Source: Alphaproteobacteria bacterium
GTDB taxonomy: Bacteria; Pseudomonadota; Alphaproteobacteria; MPNO01; UBA830
DNA length: 64,000 nucleotides
Assembly (NCBI GenBank): GCA_965243135.1
Contig: OZ251539.1
Coordinates: 4,256,001-4,320,000 of the forward strand
Direction: 5' to 3'
The notes under the pieces are model-generated. The model searched no databases and was not told the origin of the DNA. It saw only the letters and a program-made list of their open reading frames with translations. This document shows positions 1,661 to 43,559 of the stretch, piece by piece. How positions within the stretch are numbered: the stretch's first letter is position 1; every line of letters starts with the position of its first letter. A program made the translations under genes and the position numbers.

Positions 1661-2770
1661 TCATTCCGCGGCAAGCGCTTCGCCGGATTTCTTCCGCATG
1701 CTCAGACGCACCGCATCGGCCGTTTCGCAGACGTCTTCCGTTATGCCGAGCAGAGATGCATCGCGACCGTCGTAAGCTCTGAGCGACCCCGCCGCATCCC
1801 TTATCGCGTCTCTGGCGCGAATAAGCGAGGCGACAAACCTTCTTTCCACCGGCTCCGTCGCCGCATGCGCCGCGTCGAGATCCGACTTCTCCATTAGAAT
1901 GTTTAGCCCTTCAGCATTCGCAAGCACCTCGCCAAGACGTTTTATGTCCGGGTTCTGCGCCCGGACGACCGGCGACGCATCGTCCGGTTTCCACCCGTAA
2001 ATCCACCGAAGCAACTGTTTGAGTTCGCGATGCTTGTCCGCGCTTACCGGATTCGGCGTCGGATTGTATCCCGCCCAGTTCGTTTCAAGGCCCAAATAAG
2101 CCGTGTACTGGAAGCGTCCGAGCGCCGTATAGAGATGCGAGAAAGCAAATCTCGGTGTATAACGGTTCTCGATGCTGAACAAATTGTTTTCCCTTGCCTG
2201 ATCCAGAACGTAAATGGCCGACACCATCCGCTTGATCGTATCGTGCCGGTCTCCGATGGCTCTCGCTATTTCTTCCAGATTTCCGCTTTGCCTGTACCAT
2301 TCGGCTGCGAAGCGCGCCTTGGCGTAGGCGTCCCATGTTGCCGGTCCGTTGATGTGCTTGAAACCGATAAAGGAGCGCGCCTCCTCGCGGCAACTCACGC
2401 AGTATACCGATATTTCTTCCAAGGTTTGCCTTTTCGCTTCGTCCATCTTCGGAATCCGGACGCCAAGCTCAAGCAAGGCGCGGTTCTGCAAGACAAGATC
2501 GGGATCGCGCAACAAAAGCAATGCCGCGACACGCCGGTTCCCCTCAAGAACGATCATCTTGCCGTCCACGGGCATGGCGACCAGCGGTTCGATATCGAGA
2601 TAGCCGTTGGCGGAAATCGATTGCAACAACTCGTCGAGGTCCGCGCGGCGGTATAAACGGGCGATGATCGTCGCGTCGGACGCGTCTTCGTCCCGCTCGA
2701 TCAGCCGGGGATTTCTGCGATCCAGTCGAAGTTCCGCAACCGGAATTTTTTCGACGGCGTTCGGTTCCAT
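1661..2770 (-). CDS. ParB/Srx-like N-terminal domain protein
   Basis: LDRRNPRL...EPLV...IVLEGNRRVAAL ParB-like motifs. Start moved to MEPNAVEK. Confidence 0.75.
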   Translation of the reverse strand: MEPNAVEKIPVAELRLDRRNPRLIERDEDASDATIIARLYRRADLDELLQSISANGYLDIEPLVAMPVDGKMIVLEGNRRVAALLLLRDPDLVLQNRALLELGVRIPKMDEAKRQTLEEISVYCVSCREEARSFIGFKHINGPATWDAYAKARFAAEWYRQSGNLEEIARAIGDRHDTIKRMVSAIYVLDQARENNLFSIENRYTPRFAFSHLYTALGRFQYTAYLGLETNWAGYNPTPNPVSADKHRELKQLLRWIYGWKPDDASPVVRAQNPDIKRLGEVLANAEGLNILMEKSDLDAAHAATEPVERRFVASLIRARDAIRDAAGSLRAYDGRDASLLGITEDVCETADAVRLSMRKKSGEALAAE

Positions 2771-2918
2771 GATCTTCAAATCCTGCGTCGCCTCGCTTCG
2801 AAGCATACATCGACCCGCTCGCCGATCAATTGCACCGACCGCCCATGATCGTACGGACATCTATCGTGCCGACGTTTGGGCAGGCGCAGTCAAGGACTCC
2901 TTCCGCGAGTTGCTGGCC

Positions 2919-4415
2919 TCACTCTCGCATGGAGTCCCGGACGGCCGCTTCCATCGCCTCGACCTCCGCATCGTCCAACTCGGAAAAACCGCGGCGCTTG
3001 CCCGTCGAAAGCCGTCCCCCATTCTGCATGCAGAGGCGCACGAACAAGGATGCCCGGCGATCCGGCATGTCGACGATCTCGCGCACCGCCTCGAACGCCC
3101 GGTCGAAAACCGCGATGAAGCCGAGCTCTTCCTTGAGATCCCGGCGAACGGCTTCGGTCACGCGGTCGTACAGGTATTCGGCGAACGCGGTCGCGTCGAA
3201 ATAGCGATAGAGATCGGAGGTCTCGTTCTCGACGACGATCTCCTTGTCGGCGGTCCAGCGCCAACGGATGAACTCGAAAAGCGGCCGCGAAAAGCTTTCG
3301 AGCGCCGCATCGTAGCTGCGTCGGTCGCGCAGAATGGCCGCCGACACCGGAAAGATCACGCCGGGCGGGCCGTAGCCGCGCTTGGCGAGCACATGGTGCA
3401 TCAGGTATCGGTGGATACGGCCATTCCCGTCCTCGAACGGGTGGACGAAAACGAAGGCGAAGGCGGAGACCGCCGCCGCCGCGACGGGATCGACGCCGCC
3501 TTCGACGACGCGCCGCGTCAAGGCCATCCAGGCACCCATGAGATCCGGCACGTCCTCGGGCCGCGGGCAGATAAATTGCACTTCTTCGCGGTATCCGCTG
3601 ACGGTCGCGCCCACGAAGTTCTGGATGCCGCGCCAGTCGGATGCCGCGTAGCGGCGATCGACGATATCGCCCTGCAGGCGGATCAGCGCGGCCTTGTCGG
3701 ACGGATCGAGTTCCGGCGCCGCCCTCAGCGCAGCAATGAACCGCTGGATGCGCGAGGCATTCGGGGTCTCGCCCTCGATGGCGAACGAGGAGCGCGTTTC
3801 CTTCGTGTAGAGATAGCTGACGGCGCGGGCAAGGATGGCGGGATCGTAGCTTGCGGTTAGCCTGCGCGCGTCTTCGTCCACGCGCAGGCGCATCGCTTCC
3901 TTCAGGCGGGGCGTGCGCCGGATCGTCGGACACAGTCCGGGACCGCCGAGCAGGTTGTCGGCGACGCGGTGGCGCTGCGAATTGCGGCGCTCGGCAACGA
4001 TGTGCCTGTTCGGATCCAGAGCCTCGACGTAATTGCCGACTCTCGCGTCTTCCAGATCCAACGTCCGGCCGGTGACCATCTCATGAAAGAACCACGCCCG
4101 TCTGCTAAAGGCTCCAGTGGGTTCCGCCCGCACCCATGCCTCGATATCGGCGGGTTCGATCATTTTGAGCGCGGCCGCCATCACCCCGAGATCGACAGGC
4201 TCGTGGCGCAACGCGAATCGCAGATGCGACGCCACCGATCCATCCGTGGCATATTGCCGGGGATAGAGTTCCACGATCCGGGGACCGCGGGTTTCGGTCC
4301 GCCGGGCGCCGGTTACGACGTAGCTTTCCACCGCGGGCGGCGGAACCGCCAAGCCCAGTTCGCGCCTGAGCCAGACATGACCGATCGGTTGTCGTTTATT
4401 GTCGGCTGAATTCAT
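2919..4415 (-). CDS. Fic family protein (~498 aa)
   Basis: Canonical Fic motif HPFEDGNGRIHR. Confidence 0.9.
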   Translation of the reverse strand: MNSADNKRQPIGHVWLRRELGLAVPPPAVESYVVTGARRTETRGPRIVELYPRQYATDGSVASHLRFALRHEPVDLGVMAAALKMIEPADIEAWVRAEPTGAFSRRAWFFHEMVTGRTLDLEDARVGNYVEALDPNRHIVAERRNSQRHRVADNLLGGPGLCPTIRRTPRLKEAMRLRVDEDARRLTASYDPAILARAVSYLYTKETRSSFAIEGETPNASRIQRFIAALRAAPELDPSDKAALIRLQGDIVDRRYAASDWRGIQNFVGATVSGYREEVQFICPRPEDVPDLMGAWMALTRRVVEGGVDPVAAAAVSAFAFVFVHPFEDGNGRIHRYLMHHVLAKRGYGPPGVIFPVSAAILRDRRSYDAALESFSRPLFEFIRWRWTADKEIVVENETSDLYRYFDATAFAEYLYDRVTEAVRRDLKEELGFIAVFDRAFEAVREIVDMPDRRASLFVRLCMQNGGRLSTGKRRGFSELDDAEVEAMEAAVRDSMRE

Positions 4416-40970: not shown

Positions 40971-41179
40971 CGACGGCTTGCCTTCCGGCGCGCGACGCGG
41001 CGCCGGAAACTCCGCCCGCCGACCGGGGGGATCTCCCGTCTCGCGCGGGCGCGACGGAAAGCGGAAAGTTCCGGCCGCCGACGCGCCAACGGGATTGCAG
41101 TATGCTCCCGCAGGGGTTATTTTCGACAGGGAGAGTCGGAACGCTCTTCCCGAAAGGGTCATGTCTGGAGACGGTACGG

Positions 41180-41518
41180 ATGGAAATAAAGACGGAAAGG
41201 GAAAGCGGCGCGCTGATTGCGTGCGCGGAGGGGCGCATCGACGGCGTCAACGCGAGGGACTTCGAGGATGCGATAACGGCAGCGATCGGCGATACCGAAC
41301 GCGTCGTGATTATCGACCTCGAATATCTGTCCTACATCAGCAGCGCAGGCCTCCGGGCCATTCTGCTGACCGCCAAGAATCTATGGAAACGGAACGCGAA
41401 ATTCGCGCTCTGCTCGCTCCCGGATCCCATCAGGGAAATCGTCGAGGTCGCCGGTTTCGACAAGATCATTCCGGTTCACCCCGACCGGGCGCAGGCCGTC
41501 GCCGCGCTTTCCGCCTGA
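41180..41518 (+). CDS. STAS-domain anti-sigma factor antagonist
   Basis: GRIDG, DLEYLSYISSAGLR (phosphorylatable Ser motif). Confidence 0.9.
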   Translation: MEIKTERESGALIACAEGRIDGVNARDFEDAITAAIGDTERVVIIDLEYLSYISSAGLRAILLTAKNLWKRNAKFALCSLPDPIREIVEVAGFDKIIPVHPDRAQAVAALSA

Positions 41519-41688
41519 TTCCCTCGGCCGCCGAGCGCGGCACCCTCCCGGCGCCGCGGGCGTCGAATCCGTTTGGCGCGCTCGTCGCGGCCGCGCCGGC
41601 CCGCGTGGCTGGCCAACCTCGAAGGTTGCTTGCTGTCCGCCGCCTGATCCGGCGGCGTGCGTAGCGCGCCTCGAACTTGACGGGGCGC

Positions 41689-41718
41689 TTGAGCCGGGCA
41701 CGGCGTCTTTCCTATAGT
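41689..41718 (+). promoter_or_regulatory. Putative sigma70 promoter for the candidate RNA
   Basis: TTGAGC-N18-TATAGT in GC-rich context; no + strand gene follows. Confidence 0.45.
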
Positions 41719-41725
41719 GGCCGAC

Positions 41726-41843
41726 GCCGCCGGGTAGGCCGGGTAATAGGGGAAACCCGAATCGCTCGTGTTCCCGGTAGATGGTTTGTCGGCTTCGTCC
41801 GGCCAGCGTACTGGATCGAGGGTGGCGTCTCGTCCCGGCGGCA
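41726..41843 (+). ncRNA. Candidate structured non-coding RNA (~117 nt)
   Basis: Perfect 9-bp closing stem GCCGCCGGG/CCCGGCGGC; internal GCCGGG/CCCGGT stem, GGG-GAAA-CCC, CCAG-CGTA-CTGG and CGAGG-GTGGCG-TCTCG hairpins; begins 7 nt after the -10 box. Confidence 0.45.
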
Positions 41844-42170
41844 TTGTTCCACCTTTCCTTCGAGAACCTTGTACCGATCCTGTATGAAGTTGTGACGCTC
41901 CACATAACCCGCAGTGACGATGGAGTTCGTAGCCCTTCGCGGCTTGTTTCCTGCTTTGTCGCGCTGCGTCTCCTTGTAGCGTACGACGATCTTGCCCTTT
42001 TTGAGCGGTCCGCACGCCGGGATTGAAAACGTAGAGCAGCGCCTTGCCTCCGTTCCCGCCCTGCCCTCGGTGCCGAGCAGCACCGCCTCGGGGTTCGCCT
42101 CGGGCAGGCAGTCGAAGTCCGCGGCAGTCAGTTTCGTGCCTTTCTCCATCGAGCGTACGGCGAGATGCAC
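41844..42170 (-). pseudogene. Degraded phage MuF C-terminal / PBECR-like nuclease domain
   Basis: LTAADFDCLPEANPEAVLL, ALLYVF (shifted frame), KGKIVVRY, TNSIVTAGYV...RYKVLEGKVE; family recognised from memory only. Confidence 0.45.
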
Positions 42171-42464
42171 CTCGGTTTACCGCAGTTTCCGCTAACTCCT
42201 GCGCCGAGAGTTGACAACGGTGGAATCGAACGGCCTTTCAAGCGGGGGGCGTTGCGTCGAAGAACCGCCGGAACGCGGTCCCTGCGCGAACGGGGCGTCG
42301 GCCCGGTTCGCCTGCGAGCGTGCCTGACGGCGGCTTGCGCTACGGCGTCGCGCGGGAGACCGTTTTTCCGACCTTCCTCGCCCGGACATCCATTTTCCAC
42401 GCTGGCGGCGTTTTTTCGCCCGAACCGCCCTCGCGCCGCCCGTCCCCTGTCGCCTTCGGGGAAG

Positions 42465-42493
42465 AAAAAAGCGGCGCCCAAGGGGCGCCGCTT
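42465..42493 (-). terminator. Rho-independent terminator of pstS
   Basis: Minus strand GCGGCGCCC-CTT-GGGCGCCGC followed by TTTTTT. Confidence 0.8.
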
Positions 42494-42518
42494 CAGAGAT
42501 CGATGCTCGCAAACCAGT

Positions 42519-43559
42519 CTACATGGCGAGCGTGGTGAGACTGACGGCGGACGAGCGGGTCTTCTTGCGCTCGGAGTCGCCAAGCGGAATCAGTCCCTTG
42601 TCGGCGAGATAGCCCTCCGGTCCCCAAGCCTTGTCGGCCGTGAACTCGGAGACGTACTCCTTGATGCCGGGAACGACGCCGACATGCGCGTTCTTGACGT
42701 AGAAATACATCGACCTCGACACCGGATACTTGCCCGACGCGATGGTTTCGAACTCGGGCGCCGTGCCGTCGATCACGCTGCCCTGAATCCTGTCGGCGTT
42801 CGAATCGAGAAAGGAAAAGCCGAACACGCCGAAGGCGTTCGGATTGGCGACGAGCTTCTGGATGATCAGAACGTCGTTTTCGCCCGCCTCGACGAAGGCG
42901 CCGTCCTCGCGAATGCCGTGGCAGACCGCCTTGTACTTCTTCTTGTCGGCTTTCTTCATGGACTTGATCGCCGCGAATTGCTTGCAGCCGCCTTCCATGG
43001 CGAGTTCGACGAAAGCGTCGCGCGTACCGGAGGTCGGAGGCGGACCGAGCACCTCGATCTTCTTGTCGGGCAGAGAAGCGTCGATGTCGCTCCACTTCTT
43101 GTAGGGGTTGGCCTCGAGCGCGGAACCGTCCGCGTTCGCGGGAACGTCCTTGGCCAGCGCGAGGAAGAGCTGCTCGAGCGTCAGCGTCATCTGCGCCGAA
43201 GCCTTGGAATTGGCGACGACGATGCCGTCGTAGCCGATCTTGACTTCCGTGATCTTCGCCACCCCGTTCTTGGCGCAACGCTCGACTTCGGACATCTTGA
43301 TGCGGCGCGACGCGTTCGTGACGTCGGGATGCTGCACCCCGACGCCGGCGCAGAACAGCTTCAGCCCGCCGCCGGAGCCGGTGCTCTCGACGACAGGAGT
43401 CTTGAACTTCGTCGTCTTGCCGAACTGCTCGGCGACCGCGGTCGAAAAAGGAAACACGGTGGACGAACCGACGATGCGGATCTGGTCGCGGGCCTGCGCC
43501 GACGCCGCCATCGCAAGCGATGCGACGGCGGCGACCGCAAGAACTCTCGTGGTGGTCAT
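42519..43559 (-). CDS. pstS: Phosphate ABC transporter substrate-binding protein
   Basis: Signal peptide, IVGSSTVFP, STGSGGG, GPPPTSGTRD. Confidence 0.92.
   Translation of the reverse strand: MTTTRVLAVAAVASLAMAASAQARDQIRIVGSSTVFPFSTAVAEQFGKTTKFKTPVVESTGSGGGLKLFCAGVGVQHPDVTNASRRIKMSEVERCAKNGVAKITEVKIGYDGIVVANSKASAQMTLTLEQLFLALAKDVPANADGSALEANPYKKWSDIDASLPDKKIEVLGPPPTSGTRDAFVELAMEGGCKQFAAIKSMKKADKKKYKAVCHGIREDGAFVEAGENDVLIIQKLVANPNAFGVFGFSFLDSNADRIQGSVIDGTAPEFETIASGKYPVSRSMYFYVKNAHVGVVPGIKEYVSEFTADKAWGPEGYLADKGLIPLGDSERKKTRSSAVSLTTLAM

Follow-up and report, generated by a model that had tools for sequence, protein, structure and literature searches.

Several small structured RNAs of phages are known immunity factors, among them the CI RNA of phage P4 and the c4 RNA of phages P1 and P7, and the Mu-gpT-DE motif occurs in the head-gene clusters of Mu-like phages. 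RNAs also serve as antitoxins. In the phage-related type III systems (ToxIN), an RNA neutralises an endoribonuclease toxin directly; ToxI consists of short tandem repeats, shares the strand of the toxin gene and lies upstream of it, and is processed by the toxin, and toxins of the ToxIN type do not have the BECR fold. In type I systems, an antisense RNA overlaps the messenger RNA (mRNA) of a small hydrophobic toxin peptide. Contact-dependent inhibition (CDI) and Rhs loci carry orphan toxin-tip/immunity cassettes in a tandem layout. MuF toxin genes, according to the available part of Jamet et al. (2017, PMC5576092), are followed by a short open reading frame (ORF), a proposed immunity protein, in 89.4% of 191 cases, and the accessible text of a 2026 preprint on BECR likewise has protein immunity partners only. 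Here, we describe an RNA that occupies the corresponding position behind a predicted nuclease-domain gene of Mu-like prophages. One copy lies in the window, a 64,000-nucleotide (nt) stretch of an Alphaproteobacteria bacterium genome (G000; contig C1 = OZ251539.1, positions 4,256,001 to 4,320,000 of the forward strand). Judged from its sequence and its relatives, the segment at 41726-41842 of the window (+ strand) is one copy of a small-RNA gene that is conserved and structured, has its own promoter and is part of a head-gene module in a group of Mu-like prophages. Its neighbours are X, a gene for a PBECR3/MuF_C-like domain, and Y, a Mu G-like gene (Phage_tail_S). In the following, L-numbers denote loci of the RNA or the genes, and four-digit P-numbers denote database proteins.

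The RNA gene of the window starts with a promoter (41689..41718, +) seen both in the sequence and in a promoter scan: a −35 box TTGAGC (41689-41694), an 18-nt spacer and a −10 box TATAGT (41713-41718). A consensus promoter scan found only this promoter-like site in 41400-42600, where 0.1 were expected from shuffled sequences. The RNA core, 117 nt as delimited by covariance models (41726..41842, +), begins 7 nt after TATAGT, runs from the 5′ to the 3′ strand of helix P1 and forms a four-way junction of P1, P2 (with P2a), P3 and P4. It scores 139.1 bits with R1, the covariance model built from the four copies in G000, and 121.8 bits with R2, a second covariance model of the family. The 5′ strand of P1, GCCGCCGGG (41726..41734, +), pairs perfectly over 9 base pairs (bp) with its 3′ strand, CCCGGCGGC (41834..41842, +). 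P2 (41738..41778, +; 41738-43/41773-78), which shows compensatory changes, encloses the optional hairpin P2a (41748-51/41756-59) with the loop GAAA. The P3 arm (41779..41812, +) pairs at 41779-80/41811-12 and 41784-86/41805-07 and ends in a variable hairpin (41788-92/41799-803) with covarying distal pairs, and the P4 hairpin CGAGG-GUGGCG-UCUCG (41817..41832, +; 41817-21/41828-32) is invariant in the 20 copies counted.

The first-pass annotation, made from the letters of the window, had read the promoter and the ~117-nt unit closed by a 9-bp stem directly from the sequence, and we see them in the same place. The stem with the GAAA hairpin (P2/P2a) and the 5-bp hairpin beside the 3′ strand (P4) that it described are both kept in the relatives. 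Its CCAG/CTGG hairpin, on the other hand, is particular to the window and L004, most relatives reading CUGC or CUGA; the third arm kept in the relatives is GUCGG/CCGGC (41788-92/41799-803). That the window copy is one of four in its genome, and that its promoter overlaps the ribosome site of Y, are results beyond that annotation.

The relatives were found in contigs from one genome per species with a 22-nt pattern spanning the 3′ hairpin P4 and the 3′ strand of P1. The pattern gave 21 loci, four of which (L043, L044, L046 and L054; at most 17 bits, fragments or chance matches) were dropped from all counts. The other 17, which amount to 18 placements because L051 and L062 hold two copies each and L063 overlaps L062, have R1 scores of 66-111 bits. 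In G000 itself, a DNA search gave three further copies, at G000:C1 5467723-5468032 (90% identical to the window, over window positions 41687-41999), 4107931-4108143 (68%) and 5351568-5351702 (73%), and a genome search with R1 retrieves exactly four G000 copies at 110-157 bits. Furthermore, we added a metagenome contig (L096, 101-115 bits) and a diverged copy from a whole-genome model search (L111); the metagenome scan gave two loci, the second of which, L097, reaches only 15 bits. The family thus comprises 24 placements from 12 sources; G000 has 4 of them, 10 other genomes of proteobacteria have 19, and the metagenome contig has 1. Three placements of equal score (L057, L059 and L061) were excluded, so that 21 of the 24 were used for counts.

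Could the conserved segment be a folded RNA, and from which strand would it be made? In 20 aligned sequences, 96.3% of the cells pair, as against 31-50% when the partners are slid by 1-3 columns; the alignment used for these pair counts was fitted to the covariance model, which favours structure, though the changes are evident in the raw sequences as well. Both sides have changed in 12 of 34 pairs (37 cells), and none of 500 column shuffles reached the covariation score. In the relatives, pairs of P1 change from G-C to A-U or become G-U/U-G wobbles, and P2 changes in a compensatory manner from CCGGG/CCCGG to CGGGG/CCCCG or CUGGG/CCCAG. P2a is lacking in about half of the copies and otherwise reads GGG-GAAA-CCC or UGGC-GCAA-GCCA. 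The distal helix of P3 shows changes on both sides in all five of its pairs, while the length and loop of the arm vary and some loops are UUCG. P4 is neither supported nor contradicted by such changes because it is invariant in the 20 sequences. Among 659 cells, 84 are G-U and 7 are A-C, so that 96.2% are paired on the + strand versus 84.5% on the opposite strand, and the GAAA, GCAA and UUCG loops read correctly only in the + orientation. The excess of G-U over A-C and the orientation of the tetraloops indicate an RNA on the + strand of the window rather than duplex DNA. As a separate observation, a contact between CGC of the P2 loop and GCG of the P4 loop appears possible by eye in all copies, with no compensatory change.

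The promoter is shared as well. Fifteen of the 21 copies have a TAnnnT box whose end lies 5-12 nt ahead of P1, compared with a background of 2.1% at other positions of the same loci, and TGn stands just upstream of the box in 10 of those 15. The distance of the −10 box is fixed relative to P1 and not to the start codon of Y. A shared promoter and covarying structure near homologs had been set beforehand as a check by the first-pass annotation, and both are seen among the copies of the family. The core measures 91-127 nt in different copies, and the three length classes modulo 3 hold 3, 10 and 8 of the 21 copies; the conserved ends, therefore, cannot share one reading frame, and we rejected the idea that the element is coding.

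The family is rare, and its carriers belong to Alphaproteobacteria, Burkholderiales, Pseudomonadales, Azotimanducaceae, other Gammaproteobacteria and Azophilus. No copy was found in 50,697 phage records (INPHARED, distant blastn) or in 72,556 plasmids (PLSDB), and two specific patterns gave no match in the viral contigs of IMG/VR. A looser 18-nt pattern returned 32 viral loci from IMG/VR, which we rejected as chance matches, none of the 32 fitting R1. Across 151 genomes of the family of one carrier genome (G080), R1 matched G080 alone. R2 matched 2 of 78 genomes of the window's order, namely G000 and, weakly, another species of the genus (G001); this weak match (L116 1501-1588, G001:C183 48436-48523; 24.8 bits with R2) may be a badly decayed copy. 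None of the 4227 models of Rfam 15 matches the whole window at gathering score. At E ≤ 10, the interval 41500-42520 has eight weak Rfam matches, none of which overlaps 41700-41850, and seven loci of the family gave no Rfam match at E 0.1. A full-text literature search found no published description of such an RNA. We hold it very probable that the RNA family is real, and we take the family itself to be new.

The RNA is far more constrained than its surroundings. Its cores are 64-93% identical between hosts of different classes, and the flanking proteins of the same lineages are 36-45% (X) and 42-58% (Y) identical. Similarly, the window copy and L006 are identical in 62 of 64 conserved columns, whereas the adjacent stub of X is only 75% identical, and three of the four G000 copies keep 62-63 of the 64 columns beside stubs at 73-75%. 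The fourth, L007, differs from the window copy in 10 of 62 conserved columns and has lost the −10 box.

On the 3′ side of the RNA, the window holds a remnant of X on the opposite strand (41847..42149, −; tblastn and alignment). It is truncated at the N-terminus, starts past the conserved His helix, follows its homologs only after two changes of frame (the stretch GQGGNGGKALLYVFNPG being in another frame) and matches P0005 and P0009 by tblastn at 39% and 40% identity. Because the stub starts past the His helix and has two frame changes, X of the window cannot be active. In intact homologs, the stop codon, TAG or TGA, takes in the last base of P1, as in L006 (LEGEVK-TGA), whereas in the window and in L004 the stop has turned into CAA (41844-46 in the window). 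The first-pass annotation had described a frameshifted, decayed ORF ending at the 3′ end of the RNA with no immunity protein gene after it. The decay is as it said, and includes the truncation and the lost stop; the junction at the RNA end is exact in the intact homologs while the window reads on through CAA, and the immunity gene is absent from the intact loci too.

The conserved C-terminal piece of X is found in only nine proteins at E 0.001 in a full-library HMMER search. Two of these, P0001 and P0006, are translations of the same stub as the window's: P0001 is a 101-amino-acid (aa) ORF that is 85% identical to the query copy of L004 and shares the MEKGTKLTA start with the window remnant, and P0006 runs through the same flank on the side of the STAS gene described below and so comes from a related genome with the same remnant at the same locus. 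The window's own X ORF has no Pfam match. The members of 167-169 aa are those that match PBECR3 and MuF_C. In P0007 (941 aa), Portal_Mu, Phage_Mu_F and the X domain are joined in one protein, and in L061, Phage_Mu_F (E 9.3e-16) lies upstream of the X domain in one open frame. A confident AlphaFold (AF2) model (predicted local distance difference test score, pLDDT, 89.8) suggests a soluble domain of ~170 aa with a BECR-like fold. Of the 8 rows covering the column, 7 have a His in the first helix region (sHL.R..K), and 8 of the 9 aligned domains have RTAGY, L056 having Ser; we infer that this His and the Thr/Ser are the catalytic residues. The available excerpt of Iyer et al. (2017, PMC5512222) gives the same His plus Thr/Ser pattern for PBECR domains and describes MuF-C as a PBECR domain with a possible RNA-binding or RNase role. 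'MuF/PBECR-like nuclease' is thus a fair name for the X family, with the activity predicted from sequence. The first-pass annotation had used such a name, and the MuF C-terminal position and matches to PBECR3 and MuF_C below the cut-offs support the family part of it, while the nuclease part stays a prediction.

In intact loci, the RNA occupies the space from the Phage_Mu_F/X stop codon to the ribosome site of Y and is antisense to both genes. There is no ORF between X and the RNA in these loci, as the X stop overlaps P1; the next ORF is Y, and an immunity ORF is absent. Y follows the RNA as a full Phage_tail_S gene in L061 (123.4 bits) and as a 101-aa Phage_tail_S fragment (PF05069; E 8e-17, 61.9 bits, cut-off 24.3) in L006. 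In the window, the alignment of copies leaves a vestige of Y (41687..41713, −) consisting of a ribosome site AGGAAA (41708-13), a GTG start (41699-41701) and 5 codons, and homology to the other copies ends at 41687. The bases of the RNA promoter overlap the reverse complement of the Y ribosome site and ORF start, which reads MPGASMKVEMIGAEKVRRRLD in other copies. All G000 copies carry the 3′ end of X on one side. In five carrier genomes, all nine X-domain matches adjoin an RNA copy; the same genomes hold 14 RNA copies in total, so several are without an intact X domain. Scans of viral contigs with three single-protein queries gave no relatives of X.

These loci are like MuF polymorphic toxins, as the accessible sections on them describe (PMC5576092), in that a MuF head protein carries a C-terminal effector-type domain and the RNA stands in the downstream immunity slot. 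The combination of Phage_Mu_F with a C-terminal effector-type domain is present in L061 and P0007; the window keeps the C-terminal stub only. Unlike in MuF toxin-immunity modules, the slot holds no ORF; it is taken up by a structured RNA that has a promoter of its own and is encoded on the opposite strand, and unlike immunity proteins, which usually diverge with their toxins, the RNA is far more conserved than X.

The window copy is an orphan: its promoter and core are intact, X is a truncated and frameshifted stub, and five codons of Y are left. It sits between host features, namely a STAS gene at 41150-41518 (+) (PF01740, E 4e-18) and a gene for a PstS-like binding protein, whose strong terminator with a 12-bp stem lies at 42468-42494 (−). 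Relatives in the genus keep the PstS-STAS synteny with spacers of ~480-500 nt in G001 and G002, ~580 nt shorter than the ~1076 nt of G000; these spacers are too diverged to place insertion borders or target duplications. Orphans stand among housekeeping genes in at least six lineages, with solitary copies beside PepQ; beside glutamyl/glutaminyl-transfer RNA (tRNA) synthetase and citrate synthase; beside a pseudouridine synthase (RluB) and a ScpB-type gene; beside APH and TerC; and beside an amidohydrolase. G080 has three RNA copies and no match to Portal_Mu or Phage_tail_S. Similarly, G000 has four RNA copies and no Portal_Mu, its sole Phage_Mu_F match lies far away, and one of its two Phage_tail_S fragments adjoins an RNA copy. 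All loci outside G000 were found via the RNA itself, so that G000 is the only genome for which the excess of RNA-centred remnants is free of bias.

Some loci of G000 and of other genomes have further features. The other Phage_tail_S fragment of G000 (L038, C1 4868694-4868837; profile positions 18-65, E 7e-7) has no RNA copy beside it with R1 at E 1 or R2 at E 0.1. By eye, L004 (~5.468 Mb, locus positions 2363-3310) and L007 (~5.352 Mb) of G000:C1 adjoin defence-like genes: the neighbour of L004 is an ORF that we take to resemble a Cap4-type double-stranded DNA nuclease, and near L007 there are presumably a VapBC-like pair and a HEPN-like ORF. L062 (794-2429, OY843767.1) holds two tandem cassettes, each made of a 3′ fragment of X, the RNA and a 5′ fragment of Y; the copies are 349 nt apart, and the cassettes stand before a full Y gene. 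The two-copy arrays of L051 and L062 repeat whole cassettes of ~350-380 nt. In L053 (1799-2206), a 135-aa ORF, by eye presumably a fragment of a PAPS-reductase-type protein, lies between the RNA and Y in one of the genome's two prophages, which suggests that the RNA-Y junction accepts extra cargo. In L051 (1358-1955, OZ241354.1), two RNA cassettes are located inside a clustered regularly interspaced short palindromic repeats (CRISPR) array in place of spacers. At least 20 repeats of 29 nt follow one another in this array with a period of 61 nt, the inserts measure ~230 and 156 nt, and each cassette has 8 codons of Y, the −10 box, the RNA and an X fragment; judged by I-E repeats, the sense of the CRISPR RNA would presumably be the opposite strand. 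A CRISPR array of this sort occurs in only 1 of the 27 loci checked.

How does the element relate to the described RNA systems? It would be like ToxIN if the reading that we favour below is true, in that an RNA would neutralise an endoribonuclease directly. As a type III antitoxin it was rejected: the RNA is a single four-way junction of 91-127 nt without internal repeats, downstream of X and on the opposite strand. A type I antitoxin was likewise rejected, X being ~170 aa and soluble and the conserved RNA core being intergenic, not over an ORF. The tRNA-like form of the first-pass annotation, with an acceptor stem and T arm acting as a decoy, does not hold: ARAGORN found no tRNA or transfer-messenger RNA (tmRNA) in the window, Rfam gave no tRNA match in 41500-42520 at E 10, P3 varies in length and loop, variation is greatest in the anticodon-equivalent arm, and P1 has no CCA after it. 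We, therefore, rejected a tRNA or tmRNA mimic. Like P4 CI, P1/P7 c4 and Mu-gpT-DE, the element is a small structured RNA inside prophages, and Mu-gpT-DE likewise lies in a Mu-like head cluster; it differs in matching no Rfam family and in its place between F and G in antisense. The cassettes of L062 resemble the orphan cassettes of CDI and Rhs loci, as a 3′ fragment of a toxin gene and a putative protective gene stand in tandem after a different main gene, with solitary copies elsewhere. Unlike in CDI/Rhs cassettes, the protective element would be an RNA, and the cassettes also carry a 5′ fragment of Y. The chromosomal orphans are more simply explained as remains of randomly inserted Mu-like prophages.

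What might such an RNA do? We tentatively favour, with more doubt than confidence, the reading that it neutralises the predicted RNase of X as an RNA immunity factor or antidote. An immunity role is favoured because the RNA sits in the slot where MuF toxin genes usually have a proposed immunity ORF. A sigma-70-type promoter of its own would drive the RNA at times when the late operon is off, as in a lysogen or an orphan-bearing cell; its orientation antisense to the late operon and its housekeeping-type promoter fit such expression. It would fold into a compact four-way junction and might neutralise the RNase domain by direct binding or as a preferred dead-end substrate. In this way, it would protect the phage-producing cell and would shield lysogens and orphan carriers from the same effector when particles of related phages deliver it, and the orphans may be kept for such protection. 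The antitoxin, decoy or partner role put forward by the first-pass annotation fares accordingly in part: a structured + strand RNA and its linkage to X in nine of nine cases agree with it, and the tRNA-decoy form is contradicted.

Several results weigh against this reading or against the parts of which it is built. The RNA core is near-invariant while X diverges to 36% identity, and an antidote model would predict the reverse, since toxins and their immunity partners usually diversify together. The Pfam matches of the X domain lie below the curated cut-offs: P0005 scores 25.9 bits with PBECR3 (PF18812; cut-off 30, E 9.7e-6) and 21.7 bits with MuF_C (PF18819; cut-off 27.6, E 2.3e-4), and for each of the two profiles only three of the nine aligned members reach E 0.01. 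Its top structural rows are mostly BrnT, RelE, YoeB, HigB, ParE, CdiA-CT and colicin D at Z 3.5-4.9, a range that the tool calls weak, and Foldseek against the PDB gave no match for the model at E 0.001. The linkage of all nine X domains to the RNA was counted in genomes picked for having the RNA, a part of the ascertainment bias noted above, and in L062 the RNA follows a different 160-aa ORF (794-1276) without a Pfam match. In L007, L111 and the second copy of L051, helices are disrupted in a way that looks like simple decay. P1 is not followed by a terminator; on the + strand, the first terminator-like site beyond it is at 42399. Finally, the first-pass annotation had expected a fold better than that of shuffled sequences, and this failed: the 131-nt single sequence folds at −59 kcal/mol versus −54.2 ± 4.2 for shuffles (z −1.16), 27 of 200 shuffles being as good, and the fold of the minus strand is likewise non-significant (z −0.96). 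Because the single-sequence fold fails against shuffles, we draw the case for structure from the relatives, whose covariation outweighs that failure.

The conservation is better accommodated by a small RNA of the phage 'moron' kind that would target a conserved component of the host (such as an RNA, RNA polymerase, an RNase or a chaperone) and alter the physiology of the lysogen or exclude other phages. In that case, the position beside X would be an accident of where the late operon takes up accessory genes. A near-invariant core between diverging flanking proteins is more in keeping with a conserved target in the host than with a fast-evolving toxin, and the separate promoter antisense to the late operon, the persistence of orphans without phage genes and the cargo at the RNA-Y junction in L053 point the same way. 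We nevertheless consider a moron unlikely, though it deserves attention: in five genomes the RNA directly follows the stop codon of every one of nine X domains, and we found neither a conserved target or complementarity nor a match to an Rfam regulatory RNA family. Less probable again is a cis-antisense regulator of the late mRNA at the F-G junction, which would silence leaky X and G expression in lysogens or set the F:G ratio, and by which orphans would reduce the late mRNA of relatives that enter the cell. X and the RNA are convergent, the RNA is the exact complement of the F-G intergenic mRNA, the tail-to-tail layout resembles the 3′-overlapping type I pairs of Bacillus, and without a terminator after P1 transcription may run on antisense into X. 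Pure antisense pairing, however, needs no fold, whereas here there are covarying helices, strand-specific G-U pairs and optional arms capped by GNRA or UUCG loops. Nor does it require the conservation of the RNA across lineages far above that of the flanking genes, because an RNA and a target made from the same DNA always match.

An RNA that is a partner rather than an inhibitor of the MuF C-terminal domain, serving virion assembly or delivery as a packaged RNA or a processing substrate, would account for the strict adjacency to the X domain, and an RNA-binding role is predicted for the MuF-C/PBECR domain of Mu gp30 in the available excerpt of Iyer et al. (PMC5512222). Such a cofactor would be useless to the orphans, which persist with an intact promoter and core without X, the portal or G, and the antisense orientation makes co-expression with the late genes awkward; we regard this role as improbable. 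Still further down we place neutral prophage debris, or a site acting at the DNA level such as a recombination or packaging signal, in which the fold of the window copy would be irrelevant. The window copy does lie in a decayed fragment, L007 (10 of 62 columns) and L111 (P2 and P4 broken) are visibly decaying, and the single-sequence fold is non-significant. On the other hand, the asymmetry of G-U over A-C and the orientation of the tetraloops indicate an RNA from one strand, three of the four G000 copies hold 62-63 of 64 columns beside flanks at 73-75%, and the promoter box travels with the RNA and not with the start codon of Y. We regard this last explanation as very improbable.

The constraint on ~64 near-invariant positions across proteobacterial classes is of a kind that usually marks a specific molecular partner or activity, and the RNA may serve the MuF C-terminal domain as a ligand. 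An RNA in the slot after a MuF-borne predicted RNase raises the idea that BECR nucleases delivered by phages may be held in check by an RNA and not by a protein. If the antidote reading is correct, this would be the first RNA immunity factor of an effector of the polymorphic-toxin type, and the orphans, freed of all phage genes and kept as a heritable safeguard, would form a minimal one-gene RNA defence element against an injected nuclease; we put this forward as a doubtful but attractive possibility. The solitary copies among housekeeping genes raise the possibility that they are domesticated RNA genes directed against phage effectors.

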